A DNA stretch of 35,776 nucleotides from an uncultured Pseudomonadales bacterium (GTDB lineage: Bacteria; Patescibacteriota; Microgenomatia; UBA1400; PJMF01): assembly GCA_964554155.1 (NCBI GenBank), contig CAZKNL010000003.1:1-35776 (forward strand), written 5' to 3'. The first letter of the stretch is position 1. Every line of letters begins with the position of its first letter. Of the stretch, positions 63-20,229 are shown one piece after another. A program made the translations under genes and the position numbers. The notes beneath the pieces were generated by a model. The model did not search any database. It saw only the letters and a program-made list of their open reading frames with translations, and had not been told where the DNA came from.

Positions 63-1172
63 GTGAGTGGAAAGTGGATTATGATAGATTTGAGAGAGAC
101 TGATAAAACAAGAATTTTAGGTATTAATAAAAATATATTTTATCCTGTAGTTAGTCTTACGACCCTAAGCGGAGCAGTGATGGCTTGTTTGTTAGGTCAA
201 CCAGGTGATCGCACTCCAGCTACACTCACCGATGTAGCCCCTACCGGTACCCCAGCAGACGCAGCGGCAACTGTTACAAACCCTGCTGAAGCAGCAACCA
301 ACACGGCTGCCCCTACTGCTACTTCAAAATCAGTTGAGGCATCCCCAACAGCTCCTGCAACGGCAACAGAAATTTCCGACCCAGCAGAGGTAGCTGGAGA
401 TGGCAGAGTTACCGTAACAACCCTCGAACAAAAATTTCCCCATCAAATTACTGCGGTGGAAGTTCGAGCAACAGAACAGACAGTGGAAACCCCGTTAGAC
501 TTTAATACTCTCTCTCAATTACATGGAGTAGATGGTCAACCGATTCAATATGGCTACTTTAGCGCTGATAATCCTCCTCCTTTTACACCAGAAATTTGGG
601 ATTACAAAACCCATATGGGTTCAGGGATCGTTGAACCAGGTTATTTGGTGGGTGTTGTCTCAGATGTCTGGAAAAGCCTTCAGGGTGGGAGAATTACTTT
701 TTTGAGCATGGCATATCCAGTCGAAGCTACCGGGGAATGGGAGCAAGTAAACTTCCGTCTTCTTGGTGATCAAAGCGAAAGAGGTGTTTGGATGATTGAT
801 TCACAAGGTCAACTGGTGGGAGTCCCTCCAGGTCAAAAAATGCCGTGGCTGTTCGAGTCCCAACTTGGCACAACTAACTTCATTGGGGATGGTATAGAAC
901 ATACTTTACAGTTCCCAGCAAGCTTTCCAACAAGTGACGGCAAGCAAGTAATTATCCCACAAGTTATGAAACTTGGCACTCCAATTGTAGCAAGAATTAT
1001 CATGAACCCTGGAGACTTTAACTCAACGAAAACCTTACCAGATCCTAAACAATGGTTATCAAATCCCAATTACTTTGATACGATGTATGGTAAGATTAGA
1101 GTGGCAGAACCAGTTGGAATGGTTGTTCCCCAGGCTGCTGTTCATCCAGCAATTATGAAAGCGACGAATTAG
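63..1172 (+). CDS. Hypothetical exported/anchored protein with Thr/Pro/Ala-rich linker (possible lipoprotein); start uncertain
   Basis: 369-aa ORF. Hydrophobic stretch ending GAVMAC, then a long T/P/A low-complexity linker and a globular C-terminal region; a terminator follows. Confidence 0.7.
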   Translation: MSGKWIMIDLRETDKTRILGINKNIFYPVVSLTTLSGAVMACLLGQPGDRTPATLTDVAPTGTPADAAATVTNPAEAATNTAAPTATSKSVEASPTAPATATEISDPAEVAGDGRVTVTTLEQKFPHQITAVEVRATEQTVETPLDFNTLSQLHGVDGQPIQYGYFSADNPPPFTPEIWDYKTHMGSGIVEPGYLVGVVSDVWKSLQGGRITFLSMAYPVEATGEWEQVNFRLLGDQSERGVWMIDSQGQLVGVPPGQKMPWLFESQLGTTNFIGDGIEHTLQFPASFPTSDGKQVIIPQVMKLGTPIVARIIMNPGDFNSTKTLPDPKQWLSNPNYFDTMYGKIRVAEPVGMVVPQAAVHPAIMKATN

Positions 1173-1276: not shown

Positions 1277-1828
1277 TTGATGAAAAAAAATCACCAGTTT
1301 TTTCTTCTTGGAGTGCTCTTAATTTTGATTACAGTATCAATGATATTTTTGTTATCTCGTCGTCGTACTCAGAACCAATTCAAAGTATTAACAGATCTCC
1401 AGGTTGTTCAAGCGCAGTTTGCTAAGAAAGAAGATACCTCTCCAGATGCTCTCCAACTCAACCGTTTGGTCAGAGGCAACGTTATCCAAGTCAGTGGACT
1501 GAACTTGACTCTTGCCACTTTAGTTAATTGGCCAGATAAAACTGCTAAAAAAGAGGTTGTCTTTACGCTGACTGATCTGACTGAGTACTTATGTTGGCCC
1601 ACCACCATGAATGGTGCCAAAATTGAAGACTCTGGCTTCTTGCTGACCGATCAGACCAAGCTCCAACTTCAAGGTGAGAAGTACTTGACCAAAGATCAAG
1701 CAGAGGAGATGCTGAACAAACAGCATAGCTCAGTGATTCTGGCGTTGCAAAAAGTCTATGTTGAGGCTCCAGGACATCCAGAAGCAAATCAAGTCTTTCA
1801 AGTCGCTTTGATTGGTTGTCAACCATAA
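1277..1828 (+). CDS. Hypothetical single-pass membrane protein
   Basis: 183 aa with an N-terminal TM helix (FFLLGVLLILITVSMIFLL); its stop abuts the next ATG (TAAATG). Confidence 0.75.
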   Translation: MMKKNHQFFLLGVLLILITVSMIFLLSRRRTQNQFKVLTDLQVVQAQFAKKEDTSPDALQLNRLVRGNVIQVSGLNLTLATLVNWPDKTAKKEVVFTLTDLTEYLCWPTTMNGAKIEDSGFLLTDQTKLQLQGEKYLTKDQAEEMLNKQHSSVILALQKVYVEAPGHPEANQVFQVALIGCQP

Positions 1829-4702
1829 ATGCATAAACTGATGAAGTTCCTCCTCACTAGCATCTTTTTCTTGACTACTATGTGTGTGGTTGCTTCATCC
1901 TTCCCAGTCAGCGCTGCCTGCAACTACCCAGCCTTTTGTGATGCAGCTCCGGGAACCTGTGGCACCACATGTAATGGTGGACTAACATGTCAAATTGGGA
2001 ACACGGTTTGCGAATATAGTTCTTATAGCAATTGTCATTGTTCTGATTCCTTCGGAACAAGAGACTGTAGTAATAATCCCTCTCTCGCAGGATTAGCTTG
2101 TAGTAGTCAAGATGCCTATGGCGTCTGGCATGGGCCAGGGATTTGTCAATGTGACTTTGTGTACAACTGTAACGGCTGTACCGACACAGCTTGGGCCACT
2201 TGTTGTAGCCCCGGTGGCTGCGGTTGGAGCGATTGGTCCCAGTGCAGTGCCTCGTGTGGGAGTGGCACCCAAACGCGTACCAATAGCTGTAATGGCTCCA
2301 CTGAGTCCCAAGCCTGTAACACCCAAGCCTGTTGTGGGGTCTGGGGCTCTTGGAGTGCCTGTTCAGGGGGGTCGCAAAGCCGAACTGATAACTGTGGCAA
2401 TAACCAAAACCAATCATGTGGCGGTGGCTGTACTGATTGGTCAGAGTGTTCCGCCAGTTGTGGACCCGGCACCAAAACTAGAACGTGCAGTGGCACTATC
2501 GAGAGTGCCTCATGTAACAATGGTACCTGTTGTGGCTCCTTCGGAACCTGGAGCTCATGTAGCGCCACTTGTGGTGGCGGCACCCAAACTCGTAGCGACG
2601 CCTGCGGCAACAGTCAATCTCAAGCCTGTAATAGTCAAGAATGTACCTGCACTACTGGCTCCTGGTCAGCCTGTAGTGCCACTTGTGGACCAGGGACTCG
2701 TTCCCGGACCAACTCCTGTGCCAGTGGGGGAGTGGAGACTGAGTCTTGCGATACTTGTACCAATGCTTGTGCCTGTCCAACCGCTTGTGGTCAAGCCACT
2801 GTCTGTGGCACCTGTAATAACGGCGACTTTGGCCAAGCAGGCCCAATTACACTCACCCCATCTAGTGGCAATCTGACCGTCCCAACCAACCACCAAGTCA
2901 CAGTCTCCTGGACCTCAGCTCTCAAAGCTGATAACTATGATGTTCAGATTTACCCAACTGGCACCACTTCCGGTCAAGAGTGTACAGCTGTAAACACCTT
3001 CTGTACCACTGCTACCACCAGTTTAAACCGTACCTTTACCGCGCCAACCGGTGTGGCCAACTACACCTGGAGAGTCCGTCCCAACAACACAACCTGTGAC
3101 AGCGCAGCCACATTCATGACTGCCACCGCCTCTGATGAATATCTCATTTCTGAAGGAGCAGCCTATGACATGACTGCAAACTTAGCAGTCGATGGCAATG
3201 ACGCCACAGCCTGGAGCGCTGGGGCAGCGGCACCGCAGTGGATTGAGCTTGATCTCGGTACCGCCCGAACTGTGACGGGCATCCGAATCGCCACCAATCA
3301 CTTCCCAGCTGGCAATGCTGTTTACGAAATTTACGGAGGGGCAACTGCTAATCCAAGCACCTTGATTCACACTGTCAACCAAACCATCAACCCTGGCGAC
3401 ATTTTAACCATAACCTTCTCCAGTCCAGTTTCTGATGTTCGCTACATGCGTATCTTAACTACCTCCAGTAGCTCAAGCCAAGTCAGCTTTGCTGAACTGA
3501 CGCCAACCTACAGTGATGGCACTGGCAGTTGGACAAGTGGGACCTTCACCTTAGTTGGCCAAGTCTCTGGCAACTTCTACCTTGACCAGAACTTCAATGC
3601 TACCTTGAACCTTGGCACAGGTTTATGTGAAGTATCTGGTTCACCGACTGGTCAAAATCCAGGAGCCGGCTCAGGAATCCAAGCAACTTGGACGGGTGGG
3701 GGATCAGCAAATGGGAGTATTACCGGTTCGACCTACACCATTGATAACGTCGCCAACTATGCTAGCATCGGTGAAACACTTTCTCCTGATGCCACTCAAT
3801 GGCGGTGTACCTGTCCAGCTGGTTGTACCTACTCAGGGCGAACCATCCCCGAGAGCAGCGTCAATTACTTTTTAGCAGACGTCTCTCAACCATGGTGGCA
3901 ATCCACCAACGGAATGCTCTATGCCGGGAACACCAGCGGGAACGCCGTCGTCTCACAAATTCCTATCACTTGTAGTGGTAGTTGTCTCGGCGCTCTGTCT
4001 TATCAGAGTGCGGCGGGTAACAGCAGCAGCGGGATCACCATCACCGGTGGAGGAGATATCGACAGTGATGCTGACCCAACCTTGAAGTACACCAAGCTGC
4101 GTCAAGAGACCAGCCAATCTCGGGTAATTGGTTCTGTCTATAACGGTCCACGCGAGAACTATCAATACTTCTACAATTTGTTTAGTATGGGATCAAGCCC
4201 AACCGCAGACTTCAGTGGGGTGAAGCCTACATCTGCTCCAACGAATGGGCGCGCCTACTATGCAACTGGCGACATGACTTTATCCACACCATGGTCAGTG
4301 GCTTCTGGAGAAAAACTGGTCATCTTTGTCAACGGCAACTTAAACGTCAACACGACTATCACAGTGGCTGATGGTGGATTCTTAGCTTTTATCGTCAATG
4401 GAAACATCACCTTTAGTAATACCATCGGCAACTCATCGGCCAGTGACCTCACTCCAACTGTGGAAGGTGTCTTCATTGCCGATCAGATTATTGTCCAAGG
4501 TGGGTTGAGCGGTGGTGATCTCAAGTTTGTCGGACAAGGAACATTCGTCGGCTGGACCAGCGTCACTTTAGGGAGAGAGTATAACGATCCATTTAGTAAT
4601 GATAGCTATCCCACCGAAGTCTTCCAGTTCCGTCCGGACTTTGTCCAAAACGTTCCTACCCGAATGACTCGGCCACTGTATTCATGGCAAGAAACCAACT
4701 AG
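1829..4702 (+). CDS. Secreted Cys-rich multidomain adhesin-like protein (TSP1-like repeats, Fn3-like, F5/8 type C discoidin, beta-rich C-terminal domain)
   Basis: Signal peptide ending VSA-A. Repeats of WSxCSxxCGxGxxxR, Fn3-like VSW...YTWRVRP, discoidin motifs AVDGNDATAW / QWIELDLG / RYMRI. Confidence 0.85.
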   Translation: MHKLMKFLLTSIFFLTTMCVVASSFPVSAACNYPAFCDAAPGTCGTTCNGGLTCQIGNTVCEYSSYSNCHCSDSFGTRDCSNNPSLAGLACSSQDAYGVWHGPGICQCDFVYNCNGCTDTAWATCCSPGGCGWSDWSQCSASCGSGTQTRTNSCNGSTESQACNTQACCGVWGSWSACSGGSQSRTDNCGNNQNQSCGGGCTDWSECSASCGPGTKTRTCSGTIESASCNNGTCCGSFGTWSSCSATCGGGTQTRSDACGNSQSQACNSQECTCTTGSWSACSATCGPGTRSRTNSCASGGVETESCDTCTNACACPTACGQATVCGTCNNGDFGQAGPITLTPSSGNLTVPTNHQVTVSWTSALKADNYDVQIYPTGTTSGQECTAVNTFCTTATTSLNRTFTAPTGVANYTWRVRPNNTTCDSAATFMTATASDEYLISEGAAYDMTANLAVDGNDATAWSAGAAAPQWIELDLGTARTVTGIRIATNHFPAGNAVYEIYGGATANPSTLIHTVNQTINPGDILTITFSSPVSDVRYMRILTTSSSSSQVSFAELTPTYSDGTGSWTSGTFTLVGQVSGNFYLDQNFNATLNLGTGLCEVSGSPTGQNPGAGSGIQATWTGGGSANGSITGSTYTIDNVANYASIGETLSPDATQWRCTCPAGCTYSGRTIPESSVNYFLADVSQPWWQSTNGMLYAGNTSGNAVVSQIPITCSGSCLGALSYQSAAGNSSSGITITGGGDIDSDADPTLKYTKLRQETSQSRVIGSVYNGPRENYQYFYNLFSMGSSPTADFSGVKPTSAPTNGRAYYATGDMTLSTPWSVASGEKLVIFVNGNLNVNTTITVADGGFLAFIVNGNITFSNTIGNSSASDLTPTVEGVFIADQIIVQGGLSGGDLKFVGQGTFVGWTSVTLGREYNDPFSNDSYPTEVFQFRPDFVQNVPTRMTRPLYSWQETN
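2213..2760 (+). repeat. About five tandem thrombospondin type-1-like repeats (protein level)
   Basis: WSDWSQCSASCGSGTQTR, WGSWSACSGGSQSR (short), TDWSECSASCGPGTKTR, FGTWSSCSATCGGGTQTR, GSWSACSATCGPGTRSR. Confidence 0.8.
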
Positions 4703-5223
4703 TCAATCGATCTGGCTTTACTCTGATTGAGGTATTAGTGGCGATCACCCTGAGCGTGATGTTGATCGCTGCAGCAGCAGGTCTGTTTTTCACTACTCTG
4801 CGCAGTGATAGTAAACAAACTTTTGTTTCTGTGTTAAGAGATAATGGTGACTACGCACTTAGTCAAATGGAGTTTTTACTGCGCAATGCAGTGGCGCTCG
4901 ACCGAATTAATCCTGGTGACTCCACCTGCACCTCAGGCATGTCCCAAATTGTTTTTCGATCAGTTGATAATGGCGTCACGCGCTTATACCTTTCAAACAA
5001 TGCGATTGCCTCGGAATCGGTCCAGGTGGGAGTGACACGCTATTTAACTGGTGGCCCAACCACCGCCTCAAACTTGAGCTTTAATTGTTCTCAATCTGCA
5101 CCAAACACTGGGACATACGTTCGGATTAGCTTTGACCTGACCTATGCTACCACTAGTGGAACATTTTTTGAGGAATCTGGCTCTCAATCATTCAGTACAA
5201 CAGTGAATATCCGCAGTTTCTAA
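4684..5223 (+). CDS. Type IV minor pilin (PilW/GspJ-like)
   Basis: Class III signal SG|FTLIEVLVAI; start overlaps the adhesin gene end by 19 nt. Confidence 0.85.
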   Translation: MARNQLVNRSGFTLIEVLVAITLSVMLIAAAAGLFFTTLRSDSKQTFVSVLRDNGDYALSQMEFLLRNAVALDRINPGDSTCTSGMSQIVFRSVDNGVTRLYLSNNAIASESVQVGVTRYLTGGPTTASNLSFNCSQSAPNTGTYVRISFDLTYATTSGTFFEESGSQSFSTTVNIRSF

Positions 5224-5254: not shown

Positions 5255-5752
5255 CTAGTTTTGACTCTTCTGTTGTTCAATCGTTGCCGTAGAAGTAGTT
5301 GTTCGTCCAGAATCTGGCCAAGTGACACTCACAGTTATTGTGATCATATCTTGACCACTGACGTTGGTTACCGTTACGTCAGCTTTCCGCTGATATATAC
5401 TCCCAGTATCGACAAACTCACTACTTAAACAGGCTCGATTAGGCACACTGGCGAGTCCACCATTTTGGGTATAGGGCAGTGTCGCCAAGCAATATGTCGA
5501 GGAACTGCCTCCTTGTTGGATCTGTGCCAAAAAACTTTCCCAACCCATCAAGTTGCGTTGTGCGCGGAAGTACTCGACACCTTCTTGTGTGTACTTTGTC
5601 CCCAGTGCTTTCGCTTTCGCCCGAGCGGCATTTCTTAGAGAAACCGAAACTACCGCCACCACCGCTGTCATCACCAAACCAACCACTCCAGTAGCAATAA
5701 TTATTTCTACGATTGTTTGCCCCAGCTGATGTGAACGAGTTGTCTTTTTCAT
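5255..5752 (-). CDS. Type IV minor pilin (PilV-like)
   Basis: LG|QTIVEIIIA prepilin motif and C-terminal ITVSVTW strand; ATG at 5752 preferred to the track start at 5773. Confidence 0.8.
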   Translation of the reverse strand: MKKTTRSHQLGQTIVEIIIATGVVGLVMTAVVAVVSVSLRNAARAKAKALGTKYTQEGVEYFRAQRNLMGWESFLAQIQQGGSSSTYCLATLPYTQNGGLASVPNRACLSSEFVDTGSIYQRKADVTVTNVSGQDMITITVSVTWPDSGRTTTSTATIEQQKSQN

Positions 5753-5780
5753 AGTTTTCTTAGTCACTAACACCTAGAAT

Positions 5781-6281
5781 CTAATATTGTGAAACTGACG
5801 TCCCACTAATCGAGCCACCACCTTCAATAGTGAACTGACACTGGTAATTTGGCGATGCTGAACGAACAAAGACAGTCCCATTACTCTCTAATAATCCACC
5901 ATGCAACACTCTAAAGTTCATGGTTGTAATTGTTTGGACGGTGAAAAGAGTCGGGACTTCATAGCTTTCTTCAGTGTACGTTCCACTATCGCAGACAGCT
6001 TGCAGACTAATCACATCTGGACCAGTTGCAGTTCGACTGACGCGATATGCAGTTAACTTATCGCATCCGGTTGGTCGATCTCCAACCCGTGCCTTTTTTT
6101 GGGCGCTCCGTGCCATTTGTTCAATTTGCTTACAGACATTAATCAGAGATTGGCGGCGATCAAGATTTAAATAGGCAGCAATGCCCCCACCAAAAAGTAA
6201 AACCATGATCGCCACGGTCACCAGTAGTTCGATCATGGTAAAACCGGATTGAGTAGGGGAGACAGATCTATCAGAATACAT
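5781..6281 (-). CDS. Type IV minor pilin (FimT/GspH-like)
   Basis: SG|FTMIELLVTVAI motif and a long alpha1 helix ending ARSAQKKA. Confidence 0.85.
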   Translation of the reverse strand: MYSDRSVSPTQSGFTMIELLVTVAIMVLLFGGGIAAYLNLDRRQSLINVCKQIEQMARSAQKKARVGDRPTGCDKLTAYRVSRTATGPDVISLQAVCDSGTYTEESYEVPTLFTVQTITTMNFRVLHGGLLESNGTVFVRSASPNYQCQFTIEGGGSISGTSVSQY

Positions 6282-6328
6282 AGTTTGTAGTCACTAGTCC
6301 TAGTACCTAACACCTAGCCTCTAAAAAC
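6281..6328. repeat. Degenerate 7-nt tandem repeat filling an intergenic spacer
   Basis: tagtttg tagtcac tagtcc tagtacc taacacc tagcctc taaaaac; related units near 5221, 5761, 6721, 7200 and 14784. Confidence 0.7.
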
Positions 6329-6718
6329 TTACGGATTCGTCAAGCAGTACGACGAAGGAGTCGTTGCTTCTAGCGTAGCACAAATACTGAAGGTACTCCC
6401 ACTCCCACCCGAACTGTAGCTATATTGGGTATATGGACTAGGTAAGGGATCTGCAATAGAGGTTCCACTAATATACGACTGAATTGGCGCCATCGTGCTC
6501 CAAGTTAAAGAAACAGGATAACTGCCAGTATCTGTCCGATAGAGTACCAGGGCAGAACGAACTTGCTCTAAATCAGCTTTGCGTTTGCCGTCTCTGGCTT
6601 TTTTATTTGTCTGGGTGTAGCTAGCAACTCCAATCAGCGTTAATACGGCAATGATAGTGACCACCACCATTAACTCAATCACTGTAAAACCAAGACGAAG
6701 GGAACGATGCTTGCTCAT
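6329..6718 (-). CDS. Type IV pilin (GspG/PilA-like)
   Basis: LG|FTVIELMVVV, ARDGKRKADL...YP...DP, two C-terminal Cys; GGAG SD upstream. Confidence 0.9.
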   Translation of the reverse strand: MSKHRSLRLGFTVIELMVVVTIIAVLTLIGVASYTQTNKKARDGKRKADLEQVRSALVLYRTDTGSYPVSLTWSTMAPIQSYISGTSIADPLPSPYTQYSYSSGGSGSTFSICATLEATTPSSYCLTNP

Positions 6719-6746
6719 ATTTCTCCCTATTCCCTAAACCTAGCCG

Positions 6747-7187
6747 CTACTGCCGTTGGGATGCACAGAAGTAGTTGGCTCCGGAACCTGTCCCATACGT
6801 ACAGACACCAGAGGAGTTGCCAAGTGCTGTGGCGTTTCCTTTGCCAATTTTTTCCAGGGTAGCACAGACACAGTAGGCAGTCCCACCAGCACTTAACTTA
6901 ATATCATAACTGCCACTTTGAGGATCAGTGGGAGGTGTCCCAGCGGGAAAGTAGGTATTGATGTCAGAGGCCACTGTTGGGTAGGCGAAGGTATTATTAA
7001 AGTAATGCTGTTCAAGTGCTTTGGAAATAGCGTCGACATCTGCTCGACGACGAGCATCACGTGCATTTTGTTGGGCATTGGTGAAGGCAACAATCCCAGC
7101 AGCCATCAAGACACCAATGATTGCCACGACCACCATCAACTCAATCAAGGTAAAACCGAGGCGAAGAGGACGCTGCTTGTTTATCAT
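6747..7187 (-). CDS. Type IV pilin, paralogue B
   Basis: LG|FTLIELMVVVAIIG, ARDARRRADV, four C-terminal Cys. Confidence 0.9.
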   Translation of the reverse strand: MINKQRPLRLGFTLIELMVVVAIIGVLMAAGIVAFTNAQQNARDARRRADVDAISKALEQHYFNNTFAYPTVASDINTYFPAGTPPTDPQSGSYDIKLSAGGTAYCVCATLEKIGKGNATALGNSSGVCTYGTGSGANYFCASQRQ

Positions 7188-7220
7188 ATGAAACCCCCGG
7201 CCCCTAAAACCTCACTCCTA

Positions 7221-7646
7221 CTACTGCCGTTGGGACGCACAGAAGTAGTTTGCACCAGAACCTGTCCCATAGGTACACGCTGCACCAGAACCCAAGGCAG
7301 TGGCATTACCACGCCCGGTTTTTTCCATTGTGGCACAGACACAGTAGGCATTCGTTGCCAAACTTAAACTATAACTGCCACCTTGAGGATCTCCTGGAGC
7401 TGCTCCTGAAGGAAAGTATGTGCTGATTGCAGAAGCAGACGCTGGATAAGCAGAGTCATTATTTTGGTTATATTGCTCGAGTGCTTTAGAAATGGCATCG
7501 ATGTCTGCTCGACGACGAGCATCACGTGCATTTTGTTGGGCATTGGTGAAGGCAACAATCCCAGCAGCCATCAAAATACCAATGATGGCAACTACCACCA
7601 TTAACTCGATTAAAGTAAAACCTGCACGACGAAGGGCCAGTGACAT
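7221..7646 (-). CDS. Type IV pilin, paralogue A (candidate major pilin)
   Basis: AG|FTLIELMVVVAIIG; GGAG SD before the ATG at 7646; close paralogue of 6747..7187. Confidence 0.9.
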   Translation of the reverse strand: MSLALRRAGFTLIELMVVVAIIGILMAAGIVAFTNAQQNARDARRRADIDAISKALEQYNQNNDSAYPASASAISTYFPSGAAPGDPQGGSYSLSLATNAYCVCATMEKTGRGNATALGSGAACTYGTGSGANYFCASQRQ

Positions 7647-7761
7647 ATATTTCTCCATTAAAATATTCAATATAAAACCTTTGTCCTTCTATACTAAATG
7701 ATTTTTGAACAACTTGTAAAGGTCTTTTTGATTTTTACTAGGGGACCACTTCATCAATGCT

Positions 7762-8673
7762 TCATTGAAGAATCACTTTTAATTGAGTAACTGGCGTATT
7801 CGCTGACTCAACTCCAGCGGCTGTCTTGGCTGCAACTTTGACTAGATAGGTACATTTCCCCGCCGAGCATGCATATTGATGAGTCGTTCTCCCAGAGAGA
7901 GTGGTGAACTGTTGCTGCTGACCATCCCCAAAGTTTAAGGTAGTTGTCACAGGATCTTTTTTGCTTTCTTCATAGGAAGAAACAAACGTAAAAGTAATTG
8001 CTTGATCACGGGCAGCAGTAACTTGGCGCAATTCATCTGGAAAAGGATCAGCATTGACCGATAAAATGACTGGCCGTGGTAAACAGGCAGCGTAGCAGCT
8101 TTTTGGACAGTCACTGACATCAGCAAATGGTGTACCGACACCACTAAATGTCTCAGCTTGGCAGCATGAGTACCCATATCCTTGACAAGTGGTCTGAGGG
8201 GAGACCCCCAAACTGACACTGCCGCTTCCATACGACTTAATTTCCTCATTTTCAATTCCGATAATACTGCGCCGGCCAAATGTCTCGATCTCAATCGTAC
8301 TTCGTTCGTTTCCCCAAATAATTCCACCACTGCCTGGACGTTTATAAACCAAAGGAGGGAGTGTATATTTTCCAATTAAAATTGGATCTGATACAAACTG
8401 ACTGCAGACTACTTCTAAGACATACTCTCGGTTATTCAGAAAACGCAGTTGGAGTGCCCCAATTGTTGCTAGCTCTAGTGTGACTCCACCTTTTTCGCGA
8501 CATTGTCGGGCATACTGGAGATTATCTTTAGAGACACGCTGCAAAGTACTCAGCGAGCTACGAATCATCGATGATCCAACCATCAATAGAATTTCACGAG
8601 TCAACAAACCAACTCCAACACTCACAATGGCAATCACAAAAAAAGAACTTACTAGAAATTTAATAACTCTCAT
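7762..8673 (-). CDS. Membrane-anchored Cys-rich protein with C-terminal PKD-like domain
   Basis: N-terminal TM, Cys cluster CQGYGYSCC...CPKSCYAAC, PKD-like LNFGDG...THQY...YLVKV. Confidence 0.7.
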   Translation of the reverse strand: MRVIKFLVSSFFVIAIVSVGVGLLTREILLMVGSSMIRSSLSTLQRVSKDNLQYARQCREKGGVTLELATIGALQLRFLNNREYVLEVVCSQFVSDPILIGKYTLPPLVYKRPGSGGIIWGNERSTIEIETFGRRSIIGIENEEIKSYGSGSVSLGVSPQTTCQGYGYSCCQAETFSGVGTPFADVSDCPKSCYAACLPRPVILSVNADPFPDELRQVTAARDQAITFTFVSSYEESKKDPVTTTLNFGDGQQQQFTTLSGRTTHQYACSAGKCTYLVKVAAKTAAGVESANTPVTQLKVILQ

Positions 8674-8694
8674 ACTTGGCAGGCATTCGCTAGG

Positions 8695-9519
8695 TTAACG
8701 CAACAGATTTAAGTACCATTGCCAAACCTGGGTACCAAAAACTAATGTCACGATTGTACTCATAACCAGGAAGGGACCGAAAGGGACAGTTTGGCCTTGG
8801 CCAAACTTCTTTTTTTTGCAGAACATCAAAACTAACCCAACAATCGCTCCAAACAAAAACGCCAACAGTGTTCCCAAAAAAACATTTGGCCAGCCCAGCA
8901 GCAAAGCAAAAGGAACCGTAAACTTGACGTCTCCAAAACCCATCCCTTTGCCCTTGGTCACCCAATACAAAAAATAAAAAAATGAACTTACGACCAGCGC
9001 TCCCAAAATAGTATAGACAAAGTCAATCGGCCGCATTACATTCGCCAAAGTCAGCCCAATTCGATAGAGCAATGTCAAAACAGTTAGTAACCCGACCGCT
9101 TCATCAGGAATAATCAAGTACCGCAGATCGGCGAAAAAAATAACTAACAAACACAACCCAACCACCAACCAAAACATTGGTTGAATGACACTAAATGGGT
9201 GTTGAGTGAGTCGAAAAAAAAGTGAGCCCATCCAAAACCACCAGACAAACAACGTTCCACTCATACACTCAATTACCGGATGAGAAAGGGAAAGAACTGC
9301 TTTGCAGTATCGACACTTTCCACGAATCAGGAAATAGGACACCAACGGAATATTGTCATACCACTTGAGTTGTTTTCGACAACTGTCACACTTTGAGCGA
9401 CCGCGCACCCACGATTGATTGCGCACTGTTCGATAAATGACCACGTTCAAGAAACTGCCAATTGCGGCTCCCAAGGCAAACAACGAAAAACTCAAGAATA
9501 AAAAAAGTGGTCCAATCAC
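8695..9519 (-). CDS. pilD: Prepilin peptidase (A24)
   Basis: IGSFLNVVIYR, CxxC...RGKCRYC, DLRYLIIPD, GMGFGDVK, PFGPFL. Confidence 0.95.
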   Translation of the reverse strand: MIGPLFLFLSFSLFALGAAIGSFLNVVIYRTVRNQSWVRGRSKCDSCRKQLKWYDNIPLVSYFLIRGKCRYCKAVLSLSHPVIECMSGTLFVWWFWMGSLFFRLTQHPFSVIQPMFWLVVGLCLLVIFFADLRYLIIPDEAVGLLTVLTLLYRIGLTLANVMRPIDFVYTILGALVVSSFFYFLYWVTKGKGMGFGDVKFTVPFALLLGWPNVFLGTLLAFLFGAIVGLVLMFCKKKKFGQGQTVPFGPFLVMSTIVTLVFGTQVWQWYLNLLR

Positions 9520-9528
9520 CTCCTTAGC

Positions 9529-10731
9529 TTAGAAGCTACTGGTGATGTTGTAAATTGGCATGATGATGGCCAGAACCAGAATTGCCACTCCAAAGCCAAG
9601 TACAATCATAATCATTGGCTCAAAGGCTGCAGTTAAGTTTCGGACTGCTTGTTCACTTTCACTTTCAAAGTAAATAGACAACTTCAGTAACACTTCGTCA
9701 ACCTTACCCGTTTCTTCACCAACCGCAATCATTTGCGGTACGATTGGCGGAAAGAAGTCATACTTACTAATTGTCTGAGAGAGAGGAACACCTTTCTCAA
9801 CTTGGTCTGTGCTGGTTGCCAAAGCATTCCGATAGAGCATATTGTCTTGAGCGTCAGTTAGAATTTCCAAAGCCTGCAATACCGAAATCCCCGCACTCAA
9901 TAATAAACTCATGGTGCGGCAGAACTCAGTTAAAATCACCTTTTGACGTAAAAGGCCAAGAATGGGAATTTTTAACAAAAACCGGTCAAAGGCAATCCGA
10001 CCTTTTTCAGTGCTGTGCCAAGCGCGAAAGACAAATATTCCACCAATCCCTATGGAGACAAGTAACCACCAAAAATGGACGAAAAAATCTGATAGATCAA
10101 TAAGTAACTGGGTTAAAAAGGGAAGTTGTGCACCCAAGTCTTTATACATTTGGGTTAACTTAGGAATGACAAAAATCATCATCACAAACGCTACGATCAC
10201 CATCGCTATCACCACGATGAACGGATAAATTAAGGCACCGCGAACTTTCCCATTAAACTCTCGTTGTTTCTCCATCGTATCAGCCAATCGCGTTAAGACT
10301 GTATCTAACATTCCAGCTGTTTCACCTGCGCGCACCAACTGGATGTAGACCTGGCTAAACATCTTTCCTTGACTTTGGAGTGCTTTAGCAAATGTTGATC
10401 CTCCCTCAATTTCCCGTAATACAGCACCAGTCATGCGTTCCATAGCTGGTTTATTTTGTTGCTGCAAAATATGGAGTGATTCACTTAATGTCAAACCAGC
10501 AGTGACCATTGTGGAGAGCTGCCGAGTGAAACTGACAATTTCATCATTTTTGACACCGAACAACAATGTTTCCAGCGATGCAAATGGACTTTCGTTTTGT
10601 GGTTTAATCGCAATGACCAGCAGTGACCGATTTCGTAAAATGGCTGAGGCTTGTTCTTTAGTTTGTGCTTCAACACGACCGCGGATTGTTTCACCGTGCT
10701 CATTTTTGACTGTGTATTGATAAATTGCCAT
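9529..10731 (-). CDS. pilC: Type IV pilus inner-membrane platform protein (GspF family)
   Basis: FTRQLSTMVTAGL, AGETAG, ALIYP, VGEETG, EP motifs of two GspF domains. Confidence 0.95.
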   Translation of the reverse strand: MAIYQYTVKNEHGETIRGRVEAQTKEQASAILRNRSLLVIAIKPQNESPFASLETLLFGVKNDEIVSFTRQLSTMVTAGLTLSESLHILQQQNKPAMERMTGAVLREIEGGSTFAKALQSQGKMFSQVYIQLVRAGETAGMLDTVLTRLADTMEKQREFNGKVRGALIYPFIVVIAMVIVAFVMMIFVIPKLTQMYKDLGAQLPFLTQLLIDLSDFFVHFWWLLVSIGIGGIFVFRAWHSTEKGRIAFDRFLLKIPILGLLRQKVILTEFCRTMSLLLSAGISVLQALEILTDAQDNMLYRNALATSTDQVEKGVPLSQTISKYDFFPPIVPQMIAVGEETGKVDEVLLKLSIYFESESEQAVRNLTAAFEPMIMIVLGFGVAILVLAIIMPIYNITSSF

Positions 10732-11801
10732 TAAACTTTACTCCTATTCCCACCAGAAAGTCGGTCAAACTCTTCTGGCCGCAGTGAGTATTCACGGGCA
10801 CGTTCCCAGGAAATTGCCCCCCGTTGTACCCATTCAGCCAGGTTAGTTTCCATCAGCATCATTCCCACTTCTGCTGAGGTTTGAATCACATTATCGATTT
10901 GGTAACTCTTGCCCTCCCGAATCAAGTTTCTGACTGCCGGGGTTGCAATCAAGATCTCGGTAGCGGCAATCCGACCACCCCCATTCATTGGTACCAAACG
11001 CTGAGACACCACTGCTTGTAAAGAAGACGCCAACTGTTGACGAATTTGCGCTTGTTGATGTTCAGGGAAAACGTCAATGATCCGGTCAATAGTCTGGGCA
11101 GCATTGTTGGTATGCAATGTCGCAAACACTAAGTGACCAGTTTCAGCCACCGTCATAGCAGCTGCAATCGTTTCATAGTCACGCATTTCACCAACTAATA
11201 CCACGTCAGGATCTTCACGCAGGGCAGAGCGGAGGGCGATTTCCCAACCGTGCGTATCCTGATGGAGCTCGCGCTGAGAAATAATACTTTTGGCAGGCGC
11301 ATGAACAAACTCAATTGGATCCTCAATTGTCAAAATATGTTCTGAACGGGTCAAGTTAATTTCTTCCACCATCGCTGCCAAAGTCGTCGATTTCCCCTCA
11401 CCAGTTGGACCAGTCAATAACACCAGTCCTTGTTTGAACTGGGTAAAGTTATGCAAAACAGGCGGCAGTTGTAGCTCATCAAGGGTCCGAATCTTGCTGG
11501 GAATCAAACGGAGTGCAGCTGAAATCGCATTTTGTTGGAAATAGACATTGATCCGGAAACGGGCCAAATCTTTAAATTGATATCCAAAGTCAATCTCTTT
11601 GTTGACCGTCACATAGTCTTTTTGCTCTTGAGACATGATCGGGAAAACTAACAGCTCAGCATGTTCTTTTTTAAGGATCGGTGCACCTTCAATAGGAGTG
11701 AGCACACCATCAATTCTTAACATCGGTGGGGCACCGGTAACGATATGGAGGTCAGAGCCACTTCGATCAATCAGCATTTGCAACATGTCATGTATGTTCA
11801 T
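10731..11801 (-). CDS. pilT: Pilus retraction ATPase
   Basis: SDLHI, Walker A GPTGEGKST, TIEDPIE, LREDPDVVLVGEMRD, TLHT, AVRNLIRE; GAGG SD before 11801. Confidence 0.95.
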   Translation of the reverse strand: MNIHDMLQMLIDRSGSDLHIVTGAPPMLRIDGVLTPIEGAPILKKEHAELLVFPIMSQEQKDYVTVNKEIDFGYQFKDLARFRINVYFQQNAISAALRLIPSKIRTLDELQLPPVLHNFTQFKQGLVLLTGPTGEGKSTTLAAMVEEINLTRSEHILTIEDPIEFVHAPAKSIISQRELHQDTHGWEIALRSALREDPDVVLVGEMRDYETIAAAMTVAETGHLVFATLHTNNAAQTIDRIIDVFPEHQQAQIRQQLASSLQAVVSQRLVPMNGGGRIAATEILIATPAVRNLIREGKSYQIDNVIQTSAEVGMMLMETNLAEWVQRGAISWERAREYSLRPEEFDRLSGGNRSKV

Positions 11802-11817
11802 AATTTCCTCGCTCCGA

Positions 11818-13893
11818 CTACACCTCCGCAACTCTCAGCACTTCCTCAATAGTTGTAATCCCATCTAATACCTTAATGTATCCGTCTTGTTTCATTAACA
11901 ACATCCCATTCTGTTGAATAGAGACATCTTCAATCTCTTTCGAAGATTTTCGTTCAATAATCATTCTACTAATTTGTTCAGTGACTGGTAAGACCTCGAA
12001 AATGGCAATCCGACCTAAATACTCTGGTTCGTTCTCTGGCCGATTGGTGGTTGCTCGATAGAGCACCATTTTTTCTGGGTCTTTGTTATTTTGGGTACAC
12101 CATTGTTTATAAATTGGTCCCAAAACTTCTTGAATATCTTTAGCAACACTCGGTTCCGGGATGTATTCTTCTTTGTAACTTTGGTTAATCTTCCGCAAAA
12201 CCCGCTGGCCCATCACCATGGTTAAACTGGAAGCAAGTAAGAAAGGTTCAACTTCCATGTCAATCAACCGCGGTAATGCTCCCGCAGCTGAGTTAGTGTG
12301 GAGAGTAGAGAAGACTAAGTGCCCTGTCAGCGACGCTTGCACGGCCAAGGCTGCTGTTTCAGTATCACGAATTTCTCCAACCATGATGATGTTCGGGTCT
12401 TGTCGCAAGAATGAACGTAATCCTGATGCAAACGTTAACCCAACTTGTGGATTGACTTGAACTTGGTTGATACCAGGCATCTGATACTCAACGGGATCTT
12501 CGAGGGTGACGATGTTGACTTTGGGTGTGTTGACTTTATGTAAAATAGAGTACAAGGTAGTCGTTTTCCCTGAACCGGTGGGACCTGTAACCAGGATAAT
12601 TCCGTGGGGAATTTTAATTGCCTCTTCAACAGTTTTGAGTGCACGATCAGAAAGTCCTAGCTCGCCAAGGGTTGGGACTGTTGCGTTTTTCTTCAACAGC
12701 CGCATCACAATTTTTTCACCAAAGACCGTTGGTAAACTCGAGACACGAAGGTCAACTTCTTGACCTTCGGCTATAAACGTGAACCGACCATCTTGCGGCA
12801 CACGTTTTTCGTCAATCTTCATCTCAGACAAAATCTTGACACGGGAAACCACAGCTTCATGGACAGTTCGCGGCAAAATTAATTTTTCTGTCAAGATACC
12901 ATCGATCCGATACCGAACTCTCGTTCGATCTTCTTGCGGCTCAATGTGTACATCTGATGCACGCGACTTGACTGCAAATCCCAGAATCGTCTCAACGATC
13001 TTGGTGATTGGTGCTTCACGCACCACTTCTCGAGAAAAAACTGCAGTTTGGGTTTCTCTAGGTTGACCAATTGCTTGACCTGTTTCTTTGAGGGCGGCGT
13101 TCACTTCACTTGATAAACTCTGGGCATACCGCTCAGCAATCACCCGTTCAATTTCAGTTGGTGAGGCAAAGTGAGGAACGAGTTTGTAGCCAGTTTTCTT
13201 TTCAACAAAATCAATCGCTGACAAGTCCAGCGGATTTTTCATTGCCACTAAGAGAGAACGGTTGGTTTTATCGATTGCAAAAGGCAGAATCTGATAGCGA
13301 CGCGCTACACTTTCAGGAATTTGACTAATTGCTTCTGGTGAAGCTCCAGTATCAGCCAACGCAATGAAGGGAATGTTGTAAAAACCCGCCTTGGCTCTAG
13401 TCATATCTGATTCTTTGACCAGATGCTTTTCTTCAACCAATGTTTCCAAACTCTTGCCTGAGCTGGCTTGTTCAATCAACAAATCTTGATACTGTTCATC
13501 AGATAACTTGCCTTGTTGAATGAGTGTCGAAATAAACGAAGCACTGGGGAAAGAACCTGATTCCAAGTTCTCTGAAGTGGCCAAAGGCAGGGGTGCAGTC
13601 AAAGTCGCAGGAATCGGCGCCGACATGCTCGAGACTCCCTTTCCAGCAGCTGTTACAGCTGATACATTCTCCGCAATAGTTTGGAGCTCTGTCGGTGAGG
13701 GGGAAGGTAGAGGCGCTTGCGGCACTTGAGTGGCTGCACTCAGCGATACTGTTGGATTAGCAGCGATACTGACTGTCGCATTTTCCATTGCTCCAGTCAT
13801 CCCTGACGTCGCAATTTGAGGCGGCTGAGACTGTGGGACGGTGAGCGTTTTCCCTGATGGGGAATCCGATATATTCAATGGTTGATCAGACAT
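11818..13893 (-). CDS. pilB: Pilus assembly ATPase (PilB/GspE) with disordered N-terminal extension
   Basis: ASDVHIEP, PQDGR, GPTGSGKTT, LRQDPNIIMVGEIRD, TGHLVFSTLH; start chosen at the MSDQ ATG. Confidence 0.93.
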   Translation of the reverse strand: MSDQPLNISDSPSGKTLTVPQSQPPQIATSGMTGAMENATVSIAANPTVSLSAATQVPQAPLPSPSPTELQTIAENVSAVTAAGKGVSSMSAPIPATLTAPLPLATSENLESGSFPSASFISTLIQQGKLSDEQYQDLLIEQASSGKSLETLVEEKHLVKESDMTRAKAGFYNIPFIALADTGASPEAISQIPESVARRYQILPFAIDKTNRSLLVAMKNPLDLSAIDFVEKKTGYKLVPHFASPTEIERVIAERYAQSLSSEVNAALKETGQAIGQPRETQTAVFSREVVREAPITKIVETILGFAVKSRASDVHIEPQEDRTRVRYRIDGILTEKLILPRTVHEAVVSRVKILSEMKIDEKRVPQDGRFTFIAEGQEVDLRVSSLPTVFGEKIVMRLLKKNATVPTLGELGLSDRALKTVEEAIKIPHGIILVTGPTGSGKTTTLYSILHKVNTPKVNIVTLEDPVEYQMPGINQVQVNPQVGLTFASGLRSFLRQDPNIIMVGEIRDTETAALAVQASLTGHLVFSTLHTNSAAGALPRLIDMEVEPFLLASSLTMVMGQRVLRKINQSYKEEYIPEPSVAKDIQEVLGPIYKQWCTQNNKDPEKMVLYRATTNRPENEPEYLGRIAIFEVLPVTEQISRMIIERKSSKEIEDVSIQQNGMLLMKQDGYIKVLDGITTIEEVLRVAEV

Positions 13894-13961
13894 AGGGCAA
13901 GCACCTTTTATGGTGACATAGCCAACGCCGAGATGCAAGGGAAGACGTATAATCAAACAAG

Positions 13962-17340: not shown

Positions 17341-20229
17341 ATGGTGAAAGACAAAGACCAAAAACCAGAAAATCAAGAACTCGACCTCGACCCAGAAATG
17401 GCTGAAGAAGCAGTAGAGTTGGCTGAGACTGAAGAAGGTGAAACCGTTGGCGAGGCCAGAATGTCTGGTGAGACCAATGTCGCAGTTGAGGCTGAAGGAC
17501 CAAGCATCAACTCGATCACCGAGGATCGATTCGGCAAAGTCAAACATATCTCAATCATTTCAGAAATGGAAAAGTCTTACTTAGACTATGCCATGAGTGT
17601 GATCGTGGCTCGGGCTTTACCAGATGTCCGTGATGGTTTGAAACCAGTTCACCGCCGGATTCTGTACTCGATGTACAAAAGCGGCATTCACCATACCAGT
17701 ACCTACAAGAAATGTGCTCGTATTGTTGGAGACGTTTTGGGACGTTACCACCCTCATGGTGATTCAGCTGTCTACTCTGCGTTGGTTCGTTTAGCACAGG
17801 ACTTCAGCATGCGCTACATGTTGATCGATGGCCAAGGCAACTTCGGCTCAGTTGATGGTGACAGCCCAGCTGCCATGCGGTACACCGAGGCACGGTTGGC
17901 CAAAATTTCCAAAGAGCTGCTGGCTGATATTGATAAGAAAACTGTGCCATTTGAAAACAACTTTGATGGCTCAATTCAAGAACCAACTGTGCTGCCAACT
18001 AGACTACCCAACTTACTCTTGATGGGATCTGAAGGTATTGCGGTGGGTATGGCCACCAAGATTCCGCCACATAACTTGATCGAAGTAGGTAAGGCTATCT
18101 TAGCTACCCTAGAACAAGGTAAATCGACAGTGGGCACGCCGGTTGTTTCTGAAGAAGATGTCAAGTCAATTAAAGCCAAGGGTAAACCAGGCGAAACTAT
18201 CGAGGAGTTTAATAAACAGATCGATACCGTTTTAACTGCAGAAGCTCGAGTCTTAGCAGGTGTTTTTACCAGTGAAATTGCGATTGACGAGATCATGACC
18301 TTTATCCAAGGTCCTGACTTCCCAACTGGTGGCATCATGTACGACTTCCAGGCAATCAAAGAAGGCTATCACACTGGTAAAGGCAAAATTGTGGTCCGAG
18401 CCAAAACTGAGATTGTTGAAGACAAAAAAGGCAACTTTAAAATCTTGGTCACCGAGCTGCCATACCAAGTGAATAAAGCCAGATTAATCATGAAAATTGC
18501 CGATCTTGTCCGTAGTAAAAAGATCGATGGTATTAAAGACTTAAATGATGACTCTGACCGTCAAGGAATGACAATTACGATTGAGCTGAAACGCGATGCT
18601 CGACCAAAAGTAGTGTTGAACTTGCTGTTTAAGAACACTGAACTACAAAGTAGCTTTCCAATGAACATGGTTGCGTTGAATAGTGAAGGTACACCCCAAC
18701 TGATGAACATCAAGAATGTCTTGATCGAGTACATCAACCACCGTCAATTGATCGTTGTTCGTCGTGCTCAGTTTGAACTATCAGAAGCTCGTGCTCGCGC
18801 GCATATTCTGGAAGGATTATTGATCGCGCTCGCGCATCTCGATGAAGTTATCGAAACCATTCGCAAATCCGCTGACACCGACACCGCCCGGGACGCTTTG
18901 ATGAAGAAGTTTGGTTTATCCGAACTGCAAGCTCTGGCTATCCTGGAAATGCAGCTAAAACGGCTGGCTGCTCTTGAGCGTCAGAAGATTGAAGATGAAT
19001 ACAAAACCATCAAAGAACTGATGGATAAATTACTAAAACTCTTAATTAATCCAAAAGCAGTCTTGAAACAGATTGCCACTGAAACTGAAGAAATGATCGA
19101 ACAGTATGGTGATGATCGCCGCACCAAGTTAATCAAAGGTAAGATCGGTGAGTTCAGTGAACAAGACTTAATCGCCAATGAAGCAACTGTCATCACCCTC
19201 ACCCAAACTGGTTACATCAAACGGTACAGTCCAAGCGCACTGCGTTCACAACAGCGTGGGGGCAAAGGTGCGATCGGCATCAAGACCAAGGAAGAAGATA
19301 TTGTTCACAGTATCCTGACGGTCAACACCCATGACAGTCTGTTACTTTTCACTAACCAAGGTCGCGTCTTTAAACTCAAAGCTTTTGAGATTCCAGAAAG
19401 TGGTCGCCAGGCAAAAGGCACTGCTTTAGTGAACTTACTGAACCTCAAAACTGGGGAAACCGCCCGCAGTATCTTGATCCTCGACGAAATTAACGACAAA
19501 GACTGCTTTATCACTCTGGCAACCAAGAAGGGTCTTGTTAAGAAAACCGCTGTTAAGATGTACAGCAACATTCGTCAAAACGGGATTATTGCCGTCTTGC
19601 TTAAAGATGGAGACGAGCTTGTCTGGGGGAAAGTCACCAGTGGCAAAGATGACTTAATGTTGATCAGTCATCAAGGTAAATCAATCCGCTTCAGTGAAAC
19701 CGAAGTCAAGAGCTCCAACCGTGACACTCAAGGCGTCAAAGGGATTGAGTTGAAAAAAGATGACTACGTAGTAGGTGTTGAGGTACTGAGCGCTGAATCC
19801 GAGACCCGCCAGCTACTTTTAATCACTGAGAATGGTTTGGGCAAACGAACTGATCTTTCCCAATACCCAATTCAAAAACGCGCTGGTCAGGGCGTCAAAG
19901 TTGCTGAGATCACCAAGAAAACTGGTGATGTGGTCGCCGCCATGATGGTGACTGAGTTACACACAGAAGTAGTAATTACTACTGAATCTGGACAAATGAT
20001 CAAGCTGCCATTGACTGCCTCGAGTATTCCAGTCTTAACTCGCCCAACTCAAGGCGTTATCCTGATGCGTCCCAAAGCAGGCGATAAGGTGGTCGCTGTT
20101 GCCTTAACCACTGAATCTGAGGAAGAAGAAGCTGCTTCAGAAGGGGCAGAGGGAGAAAAGAAGACAGACGGGAAAGAGAAGCCCACAGCAAAATCCCAAC
20201 CGGCTGTGACCGAAGAAACGCTTGAGTAA
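17341..20229 (+). CDS. gyrA: DNA gyrase subunit A
   Basis: [36 protein letters not shown], GyrA-box QQRGGKG, beta-pinwheel repeats, acidic tail. Confidence 0.97.

Follow-up and report, generated by a model that had tools for sequence, protein, structure and literature searches.

A modular thrombospondin-repeat protein coupled to a minor pilin gene in Patescibacteria: a candidate type IV pilus tip adhesin

Contig CAZKNL010000003.1 (assembly GCA_964554155.1), from an uncultured bacterium of the Patescibacteriota (Microgenomatia; UBA1400; PJMF01), carries at the edge of a type IV pilus (pil) operon a gene for a large modular protein, P0001, referred to here as the adhesin. The contig was analysed over positions 1 to 35,776, and this whole stretch of 35,776 nucleotides is what is meant by the window. 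The 3' end of the adhesin gene overlaps the start of a gene for a minor pilin (“pilinX”) by 19 nucleotides (nt), as an earlier note on this DNA had pointed out. The protein combines a variable head, made from a Cys-rich cap, thrombospondin type 1 repeats (TSRs) and a discoidin domain, with a conserved C-terminal module (C-module, residues 560-957; 398 residues). This module defines a large unannotated protein family, in which one base is found behind very different heads. We see about an even chance that P0001 is a secreted adhesin whose base is docked on the minor-pilin complex and whose head is displayed at the tip of the pilus.

The source assembly comprises 940,664 bases in 97 contigs and is estimated to be 89.7% complete; a profile search finds a single copy of the adhesin gene (1829-4702) in it. 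The public runs that contain the stretch are soil metagenomes from one study, namely two DNA runs and no RNA run. The features of the adhesin and its coupled pilin are as follows, with positions in the window:

1829..4702, + strand: adhesin gene (P0001), an open frame of 957 amino acids (aa) plus stop
1829..1915, + strand: putative Sec-type signal peptide, residues 1-29, junction VSA/A, read by eye from the sequence
1916..2218, + strand: Cys-rich N-terminal cap, residues 30-130, with 16 Cys, kept in close homologues
2219..2758, + strand: five thrombospondin type 1-like repeats, residues 131-310 (Pfam TSP_1 and TSP1_ADAMTS, motif counts)
2759..3118, + strand: Cys knot and Fn3-like beta domain, residues 311-430, the start of the conserved core (matches of the family hidden Markov model (HMM) at 2891-3226)
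3122..3484, + strand: F5/8 type C (F5/8C; discoidin) domain, residues 432-552 (Pfam PF00754)
3551..3886, + strand: predicted CnaB / SdrD-B-like beta sandwich, residues 575-686 (module 16-127; AlphaFold2 and VIA-align)
3887..4699, + strand: predicted triangular beta-solenoid, residues 687-957 (module 128-398; AlphaFold2 and VIA-align), which includes the DUF7305 match
4616..4699, + strand: conserved C-terminal tail, RPDF..N.P..M......W.E.N (column conservation)
4684..5223, + strand: GspJ/XcpW-class minor pilin (pilinX), 179 aa (N_methyl, AlphaFold2 and VIA-align)

The public gene call for the adhesin frame is a protein of only 528 aa that begins at an internal Met (window 3116-4702). Many database members of the family likewise begin within the conserved Fn3-like domain, so that the Cys-rich heads of this family appear to be lost regularly in gene calling and the TSR modules stay hidden from annotation. 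It might be argued that the 528-aa call is the true gene and that the TSR half is untranslated, its TSR signal arising by chance in a Cys- and Gly-rich frame; the start at an internal Met and the higher G+C content of the 5' half would agree with this. We consider it very improbable. The HMM matches given below exceed their thresholds, and the long frame opens at an ATG that immediately follows the TAA of the upstream membrane-protein gene and encodes a signal peptide, whereas the internal start has none. The AxA/AC junction of the leader is common to close homologues of the adhesin, and homologues of 898-1146 aa have the same leader, Cys-rich cap, TSRs and Cys knot. Of the 40 differences listed between this sequence and contigs of a related strain that co-occurs in the soil study, 34 affect the third codon position of the adhesin frame; for the stretch 2782-2917, upstream of the internal start, the figure is 19 of 22. 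The G+C content of the TSR part is indeed high (0.56, versus 0.42-0.47 in the neighbouring genes), but the excess is found in codon position 2 (G+C 0.78; at codon position 3, 0.51 versus 0.32-0.47 in the neighbouring genes), where it reflects the amino-acid composition (Cys, Gly, Ser and Thr). A foreign origin of the TSR half was also considered as a source of this G+C content and was set aside in favour of composition. Since the ATG abuts the upstream stop and is followed by a leader, and in view of the homologue architecture, the position-2 G+C and the third-position strain differences, the full 957-codon frame is taken as real. The secreted 957-aa protein of the earlier note thus stands, its Sec-type leader being recognised by eye.

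The head is rich in cysteine, with 49 of the 59 Cys residues of the adhesin located before residue 345 (16 in residues 30-130, 26 in 130-305 and 7 in 305-345). Pfam TSP_1 (PF00090) matches in two stretches (E 6.1e-8, 33.2 bits against a cut-off of 21.6), and TSP1_ADAMTS matches with 25.1 bits (cut-off 23.8). About five repeats of the form WxxWxxCSxxCGxGxxxR had been claimed at the outset. There are indeed five units of 33-38 aa, but the strict pattern is exact only once: the complete W..W..CS..CG.G...R motif with six Cys is found in repeat 1 (residues 131-168; match at residue 133). The core C[ST][AG][ST]CG.G is present in four of the five units, at residues 139, 207, 244 and 282. The fifth unit (residues 169-200) is degenerate and lacks the second Cys.

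When residues 30-345 are searched alone, family members come first, followed by TSR proteins from animals and protists with E down to 8e-42, and the best matches of the TSR region outside the family are eukaryotic TSR proteins. The matches also include a few proteins from bacteria that are already annotated as TSR proteins, and public records contain such names in Myxococcota, Desulfatibacillum and Wolfebacteria. Among 286 genomes of the order, TSP_1 is found in 16 (14 over the cut-off), belonging to 11 of 138 genera and to two families, often in the same frame as the C-module; it is found in none of 14 control genomes. The TSR matches agree with the original description of the protein as “eukaryote-like”, but this has to be tempered by the occurrence of TSRs elsewhere in the order and in other named bacterial proteins.

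TSRs have usually been treated as an adhesion module of animals and apicomplexans (PMC3417536). The likeness of P0001 to eukaryotic TSR proteins, such as thrombospondin, ADAMTS, SCO-spondin and apicomplexan MIC2/TRAP, lies in the TSP_1 score and in the motif of repeat 1 with its six Cys. It differs from them in being bacterial, with a Sec leader, and only one of its five repeats has the complete motif. Two eukaryotic modifications of TSRs, C-mannosylation and O-fucosylation, are not expected in the adhesin.

By eye, homologues have roughly three to six TSRs. In the window, one contig from a soil run joins position 2590 back to 2313, with 28 other letters in between and a depth of 2, and loose contig ends are seen at 2343 and 2568 within the TSR region. 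The join across 2313-2590 could represent a strain with a different number of TSRs, or an assembly tangle in the repeats.

The Fn3-like domain that follows the Cys knot is found directly before the C-module in most homologues. Its assignment to Fn3 is not confirmed: Pfam fn3 has no match in P0001 at E <= 0.1 (residues ~345-430), and the homologue P0047 has a match of 23.7 bits at the equivalent place, below the cut-off of 25. In P0001, the discoidin domain is inserted between the Fn3-like domain and the C-module, a place where most family members have none. It is recognised by Pfam F5_F8_type_C over residues 432-552 (E 1.3e-12, 48.4 bits against a cut-off of 28.2, profile positions 2-122 of 127). 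The TSP_1 and F5/8C domains that the earlier note had proposed are both confirmed by HMM matches above cut-off.

The C-module was modelled with AlphaFold2 from an alignment of 66 sequences, which gave a predicted local distance difference test (pLDDT) score of 93.7 and a predicted TM-score (pTM) of 0.83, and the fold was compared with 48,161 chains by VIA-align. The beta sandwich matches 10ps_A (Z 9.6, root-mean-square deviation (rmsd) 2.8, 102 aligned residues). The best fold match of the solenoid is to ice-binding proteins of the DUF3494 type (3WP9, 6BG8, 4NU2; Z 12.3-13.7, 161-178 aligned), with 3wp9_A at Z 13.7 and 178 aligned residues, and 6bg8, 7bwx and 5uyt, also ice-binding, at Z 12.3-12.9. 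It is the fold alone that is in common, as the Pfam ice-binding family (DUF3494) has no match in P0001 at E <= 0.1. Unlike the ice-binding proteins, P0001 is multidomain and has a pilus-gene context, and nothing suggests that it binds ice. The solenoid also matches ComZ of Thermus (6qvi_A; Z 12.0, rmsd 3.8, 221 aligned residues), a pilin found at the pilus tip that is discussed below. At the sequence level, residues 805-887 match DUF7305 (PF23981) with 28.9 bits against a cut-off of 27, over profile positions 47-129 of 185 only, and one of the six family members with a match at E <= 1e-4 passes the cut-off. The Atlas look-alikes of the C-module (DUF7305, pAdhesive_15 and DUF4900) all score below 0.9 and are treated as leads only.

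The last 25 residues are among the best-conserved positions of the C-module. F373, R376, P377, D378, P384, W394 and E396, in module numbering, are kept in at least 90% of the 66 sequences, and the tail is kept also where no pilin gene overlaps or comes next.

A word-indexed search with the C-module returned 55 proteins, and an exhaustive search returned 1524 representative clusters at E <= 0.001, of which 249 were at E <= 1e-30. Among the matches listed, the module stops at most a few residues short of the C-terminus, and the N-terminal part that precedes it varies widely in length. It is present in 229 of the 286 genomes of the order (117 of 138 genera) and in 50 of 301 genomes sampled evenly across the phylum, where distant matches are for the most part restricted to its final third. 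The heads of 50 family members were surveyed with Pfam at E <= 1e-4:

TSP_1: 7 of 50 family members
F5/8C: 9 of 50
PA14: 3 of 50
Big_7: 1 of 50
Big_2: 1 of 50
no Pfam match at all: 32 of 50

The family thus has what had been suggested for it, one conserved C-terminus with swapped N-terminal modules (TSR, F5/8C, PA14 and Ig-like). A literature search outside supplementary files found no paper on the adhesin family and none on DUF7305, and no relevant paper linking Patescibacteria or the candidate phyla radiation with thrombospondin or with a solenoid and pili. In three close homologues (P0012, P0013 and P0019), a second F5/8C domain is located inside the solenoid and splits the module match into two stretches; the solenoid therefore tolerates the insertion of a binding domain, as has been reported for PilX of cyanobacteria.

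The pilin encoded by the overlapping gene has the features of a genuine prepilin. Its N_methyl match has an E of 8e-7 and 28.8 bits against a cut-off of 21.2, and G11, F12, T13, L14, E16, C82 and C135 are invariant in 66 sequences, corresponding to G-1, F+1, E+5 and a disulfide pair. Close homologues are labelled “Patescibacteria group bacterium” in public records. The AlphaFold2 model (pLDDT 86.7) has a helix at residues 14-67 followed by beta strands, and VIA-align places it with the type IV-like pilin TTHA1219 of Thermus (Z 10.9), XcpW (10.5), EpsJ (10.2) and GspJ (9.6), the first unrelated chain having a Z of 6.9. By its model, the overlapped pilin is of the GspJ/XcpW class, with Glu+5 kept, and does not belong to the cap type.

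The overlap of 19 nt between adhesin and pilin genes recurs in four other loci of three genera, and a fifth locus (L009, in genome G148) has an overlap of 23 nt. The GspJ-class pilin is found in 250 of the 286 genomes of the order, with a single match in most. The places of the two genes were compared in the 96 genomes for which both were listed, drawn from the top 149 of each list; these counts include related, non-independent genomes and the unpublished G148. In the bacterial family to which the window belongs, the pilin gene was placed as follows relative to the adhesin gene:

directly downstream, same strand, within 300 bases: 43 of 65 genomes
within 1.5 kb, same strand: 3 of 65
nearby, opposite strand: 2 of 65
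1.5-10 kb away: 1 of 65
more than 10 kb away, same contig: 3 of 65
on another contig: 13 of 65

Fourteen coupled loci were fetched as 20-kb regions, chosen for the gene pair and not for the operon. In all 14, the pair lies within 6 kb of a pilB-T-C-D-pilin operon, and in 13 it abuts the operon tail to tail. In three uncoupled loci (G157, G235 and G238), the pilin gene ends the pil operon and is read in the same direction (3/3), and the C-module genes, of which there are two or three paralogues, are found 25-70 kb away from it. Since the uncoupled copies end the pil operon and the coupled pairs are close to it, pilinX belongs to the pilus. The coupling of adhesin and pilin is real and conserved in one bacterial family, and it is no property of the protein family as a whole. 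The linkage to pil loci that had been proposed thus holds in the window's own family (43/65) but not in the other families of the order (0/31) and in a single locus of the phylum-wide sample (1/29).

In the window, the pil operon (5255-13956) is on the minus strand and convergent with the adhesin cassette. The two adjoin tail to tail with a gap of 31 bases, so that the adhesin is found at the edge of a pilB/T/C/D locus, as first described. The operon consists of:

5255..7670, - strand: five prepilin genes, comprising two major-pilin-like paralogues, a small GspG-like, a ComGD/GspH-like and an XpsI/GspI-like prepilin
7762..8673, - strand: membrane-anchored PKD-domain protein, 303 aa, with weak PKD matches, between pilD and the pilins
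8695..13956, - strand: pilD, pilC, pilT and pilB (Pfam A24_N_bact/Peptidase_A24, T2SSF, T2SSE and T2SSE+MshEN, respectively)

The genome has six N_methyl matches, all of them in the window: the five prepilins of the operon and pilinX, all with Glu+5 kept. No cap pilin of the GspK/PilX type was found with PF07963 in the 89.7%-complete genome. The locus reads as major pilins followed by H-, I- and J-type minor pilins and no K-type cap, with a solenoid protein coupled to the J-type pilin. A complex prediction for the C-module (1-398) and pilin residues 30-179, entered as alignments, gave a score of 0.00 twice; it was run without controls and is counted neither way.

The PKD-domain protein is found at the same place in all 17 of the fetched loci with pil operon genes, and is an unstudied constant part of the pilus operon. 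In most relatives (L037-L042, L044-L046, L049, L050 and L052), pilC and pilD are separated by a further short gene that resembles a prepilin gene and is absent from the window and its closest relatives (L033-L036).

Several known systems invite comparison with this arrangement. [quoted passage not shown] All cyanobacterial PilX homologues are described as having the same ice-binding-type solenoid, in some cases with grafted lineage-specific domains, and the authors propose that the PilX solenoid replaces PilY1 as the cap (PMC13759059). The modelled base of P0001 has this triangular solenoid in common with ComZ (6QVI) and cyanobacterial PilX. Like the ComZ gene, the P0001 gene is located beside minor pilins of the GspI/GspJ class, and the best match of pilinX, TTHA1219, is itself from Thermus. 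However, ComZ and PilX are pilins with the solenoid inserted in a GspK-like pilin fold, whereas P0001 has a Sec leader and no pilin helix. There is no detectable sequence similarity between the P0001 family profile and ComZ, and ComZ binds DNA, whereas the head of P0001 is made from TSRs and a discoidin domain.

PilY1 and PilC are large, non-pilin proteins that are exported separately, are thought to ride on the minor-pilin complex and have a variable adhesive N-terminus, and P0001 may be analogous to them in these respects. In Kingella, the conserved C-terminal tails of PilC1 and PilC2 are the docking element and are described as docking on PilX by beta-strand augmentation (PMC13711793); the tail of P0001 is likewise conserved and may be its counterpart. 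The adhesin is nevertheless a non-PilY1 protein, as had been claimed: the PilY1 beta-propeller (PF05567) has no match in P0001 at E <= 0.1, and the base is a sandwich and a solenoid rather than a propeller. A search of the source genome with the PilY1 family gave no match, but the 14 control genomes gave none either, and this search is hence uninformative. In Saccharibacteria, the lectin-bearing PilX1 and PilX2 bind host cells, and their binding to host cell-wall components is reported as shown experimentally (bioRxiv 10.64898/2026.10.06.756255; PMC11623550). PilX1/PilX2 of Nanosynbacter lyticus and PilB/PilC of Streptococcus sanguinis are pilus adhesins with lectin-like or vWA modules. In these proteins, the binding module is fused to the pilin (“lollipop”) body, whereas P0001 is a separate secreted protein from a different family.

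The reading that we favour brings these elements together as follows. P0001 would be a modular adhesin, rich in disulfides and exported by the Sec pathway. With its variable head (the Cys-rich cap, the five TSRs and the discoidin domain) it would most likely bind a glycan or protein on the surface of a partner cell, and its base (Fn3-like domain, CnaB-like sandwich, ice-binding/ComZ-type solenoid and C-terminal tail) would be the constant attachment module of the family. The base would dock on the minor-pilin priming complex, made from the GspH-like, GspI-like and GspJ-like pilins, and take the place of solenoid-bearing GspK-type cap pilins (ComZ, cyanobacterial PilX) or of PilY1/PilC. The head would thereby be carried outward on the pilus tip. 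Docking, tip location, ligand and any role in host range are what we infer here; the domains, the base fold, the pilin class, the pilin gene coupling and the head swapping across the family are what the analysis shows.

Two genes directly upstream of the adhesin, on the same strand, bear on how this reading is to be judged:

63..1172, + strand: first gene of the cassette, 369 aa, with a hydrophobic N-terminal segment, an Ala/Thr/Pro-rich linker and a globular domain of unknown type
1277..1828, + strand: small single-pass membrane protein, 183 aa, with an N-terminal hydrophobic helix and two conserved Cys near the C-terminus

For 12 of the 20 family genes examined, including some far from any pilin gene, the gene immediately before (gap -20 to +2 nt) encodes a protein of 170-245 aa with the same layout as the 183-aa protein. 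These proteins diverge fast: sequence homologues of the window's own protein are found in 5 of 140 family genomes, pairwise phmmer links small groups only, and a positional alignment of 15 of the upstream proteins has no conserved column. No named Atlas cluster resembles it, and by eye it has no G-1/E+5 prepilin motif.

Several observations weigh against docking at the pilus tip. The small upstream membrane-protein gene is a more constant neighbour of the family than the pilin gene, and it fits a surface anchor equally well. In the other families of the order, the pilin gene is adjacent in none of 31 genomes (on another contig in 27 and more than 10 kb away in 4), and in the phylum-wide sample a prepilin gene is directly behind the module gene in 1 of 29 loci. 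A prepilin motif is found in none of 184 family proteins, many of which are truncated gene calls, and in none of the 29 module-bearing frames from across the phylum. The solenoid fold is found also in ice-binding proteins and in other adhesin-like solenoids, and the fold alone does not place a protein on a pilus. Foldseek gives no match in the PDB at E <= 0.001 for the C-module or the pilin model, so the fold assignments rest on VIA-align, and the family profile gives no match to PDB sequences at E <= 10. The tail is placed confidently in the monomer model (pLDDT 76-96) and may thus do no more than close off the solenoid; it would then be conserved for a reason other than docking. The H- and I-type assignments of two of the operon prepilins (pilin4 and pilin5) are sub-threshold NCBIfam matches.

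Many of these points would be accommodated if P0001 were a cell-surface adhesin outside the pilus, held or handed on by the upstream membrane protein, and if its adjacency to the pilin were a local rearrangement for co-expression. The membrane-protein gene is then naturally the commonest neighbour (12 of 20, and the window itself), start/stop-coupled to the adhesin; family genes can be far from the pil operon, as in G157, G235 and G238; the two or three paralogues can each have an upstream partner of their own; and the pilin orthologue need not be adjacent in other families. CnaB-like and solenoid stalk domains are also typical of wall-anchored adhesins such as SdrD and UafA. We nevertheless hold this account, the main rival, to be rather unlikely, given the match of the solenoid to the tip pilin ComZ over 221 residues and the failure to find a cap-type pilin in the genome with PF07963. 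Moreover, the recurrence of the 19-nt overlap in three genera and the GspJ-class pilin directly behind the adhesin in 43 of 65 genomes are hard to explain without a shared function.

Another solution would be a cap pilin split in two, in which the upstream membrane protein provides a pilin-like helix and sheet and the adhesin provides the solenoid and last strand, the two together making a tip subunit of the ComZ/GspK type. This would agree with the gene order, a small helix-bearing protein followed by a solenoid protein with a conserved terminal tail. It would also fit with the missing K-type pilin (PF07963) and with the small partner accompanying the family even where the J-type pilin does not. 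However, the small protein lacks a prepilin cleavage motif, its homologues are few and align poorly beyond close relatives, with no named look-alike in Atlas, and no fused form of pilin and module was found among the 184 family proteins and 29 phylum-wide frames. A split cap therefore seems improbable. A bolder form of the docking model, which is speculative and on balance unlikely, is that in this branch of the Patescibacteria the pilus lost its cap-type (GspK/PilX/ComZ) pilin and that a Sec-secreted solenoid protein caps it in trans, with its C-terminal tail in the minor-pilin complex and possibly with the upstream membrane protein as the missing half of the pilin. Paralogues and strains would then exchange heads (TSR, discoidin, PA14 and Ig) on a single socket. 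If this were true, the family would provide these episymbionts with an exchangeable device for recognising their hosts.

Ultrasmall Patescibacteria are believed to live on other microbes, to which they attach, and to our knowledge almost nothing is known of how they recognise their partners outside the oral Saccharibacteria. The present family is a concrete and widespread candidate, with a constant base resembling a tip module and exchangeable binding heads. If the base docks on the pilus, host range in uncultured lineages could be predicted directly from the heads; next to PilY1 and the solenoid-bearing pilins, the base would represent a third kind of cap for type IV pili; and thrombospondin repeats would gain a role in bacterial cell-cell contact. 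If it does not dock, this is still a large unannotated family of adhesins.

The remaining observations concern the rest of the cassette and the window. The 369-aa product of the first cassette gene has no Pfam or NCBIfam match. A gene for a protein of 370-690 aa occupies the same position before many family members, with homology shown only to two loci of the same genus. One locus, L047 (G238:C1:96000-115500), has three module paralogues within 12 kb and another, L048, has two. Two of the paralogues in L047 and one of those in L048 are each accompanied by a small membrane protein and an upstream gene for 370-470 aa, and the remaining paralogue in each locus follows a site-2-protease-like gene. 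The arrangement looks like a three-gene cassette that duplicates. Beyond the pil operon, the gyrA gene (17341-20229, + strand) encodes a product of 962 aa in which the DNA_topoisoIV domain is matched in two stretches, perhaps because the catalytic domain contains an insertion. About 10 kb beyond the operon is a gene for a tyrosine recombinase of the XerC/D-like type (24123-25103, - strand), with Phage_integrase and SAM-like N-terminal domains.

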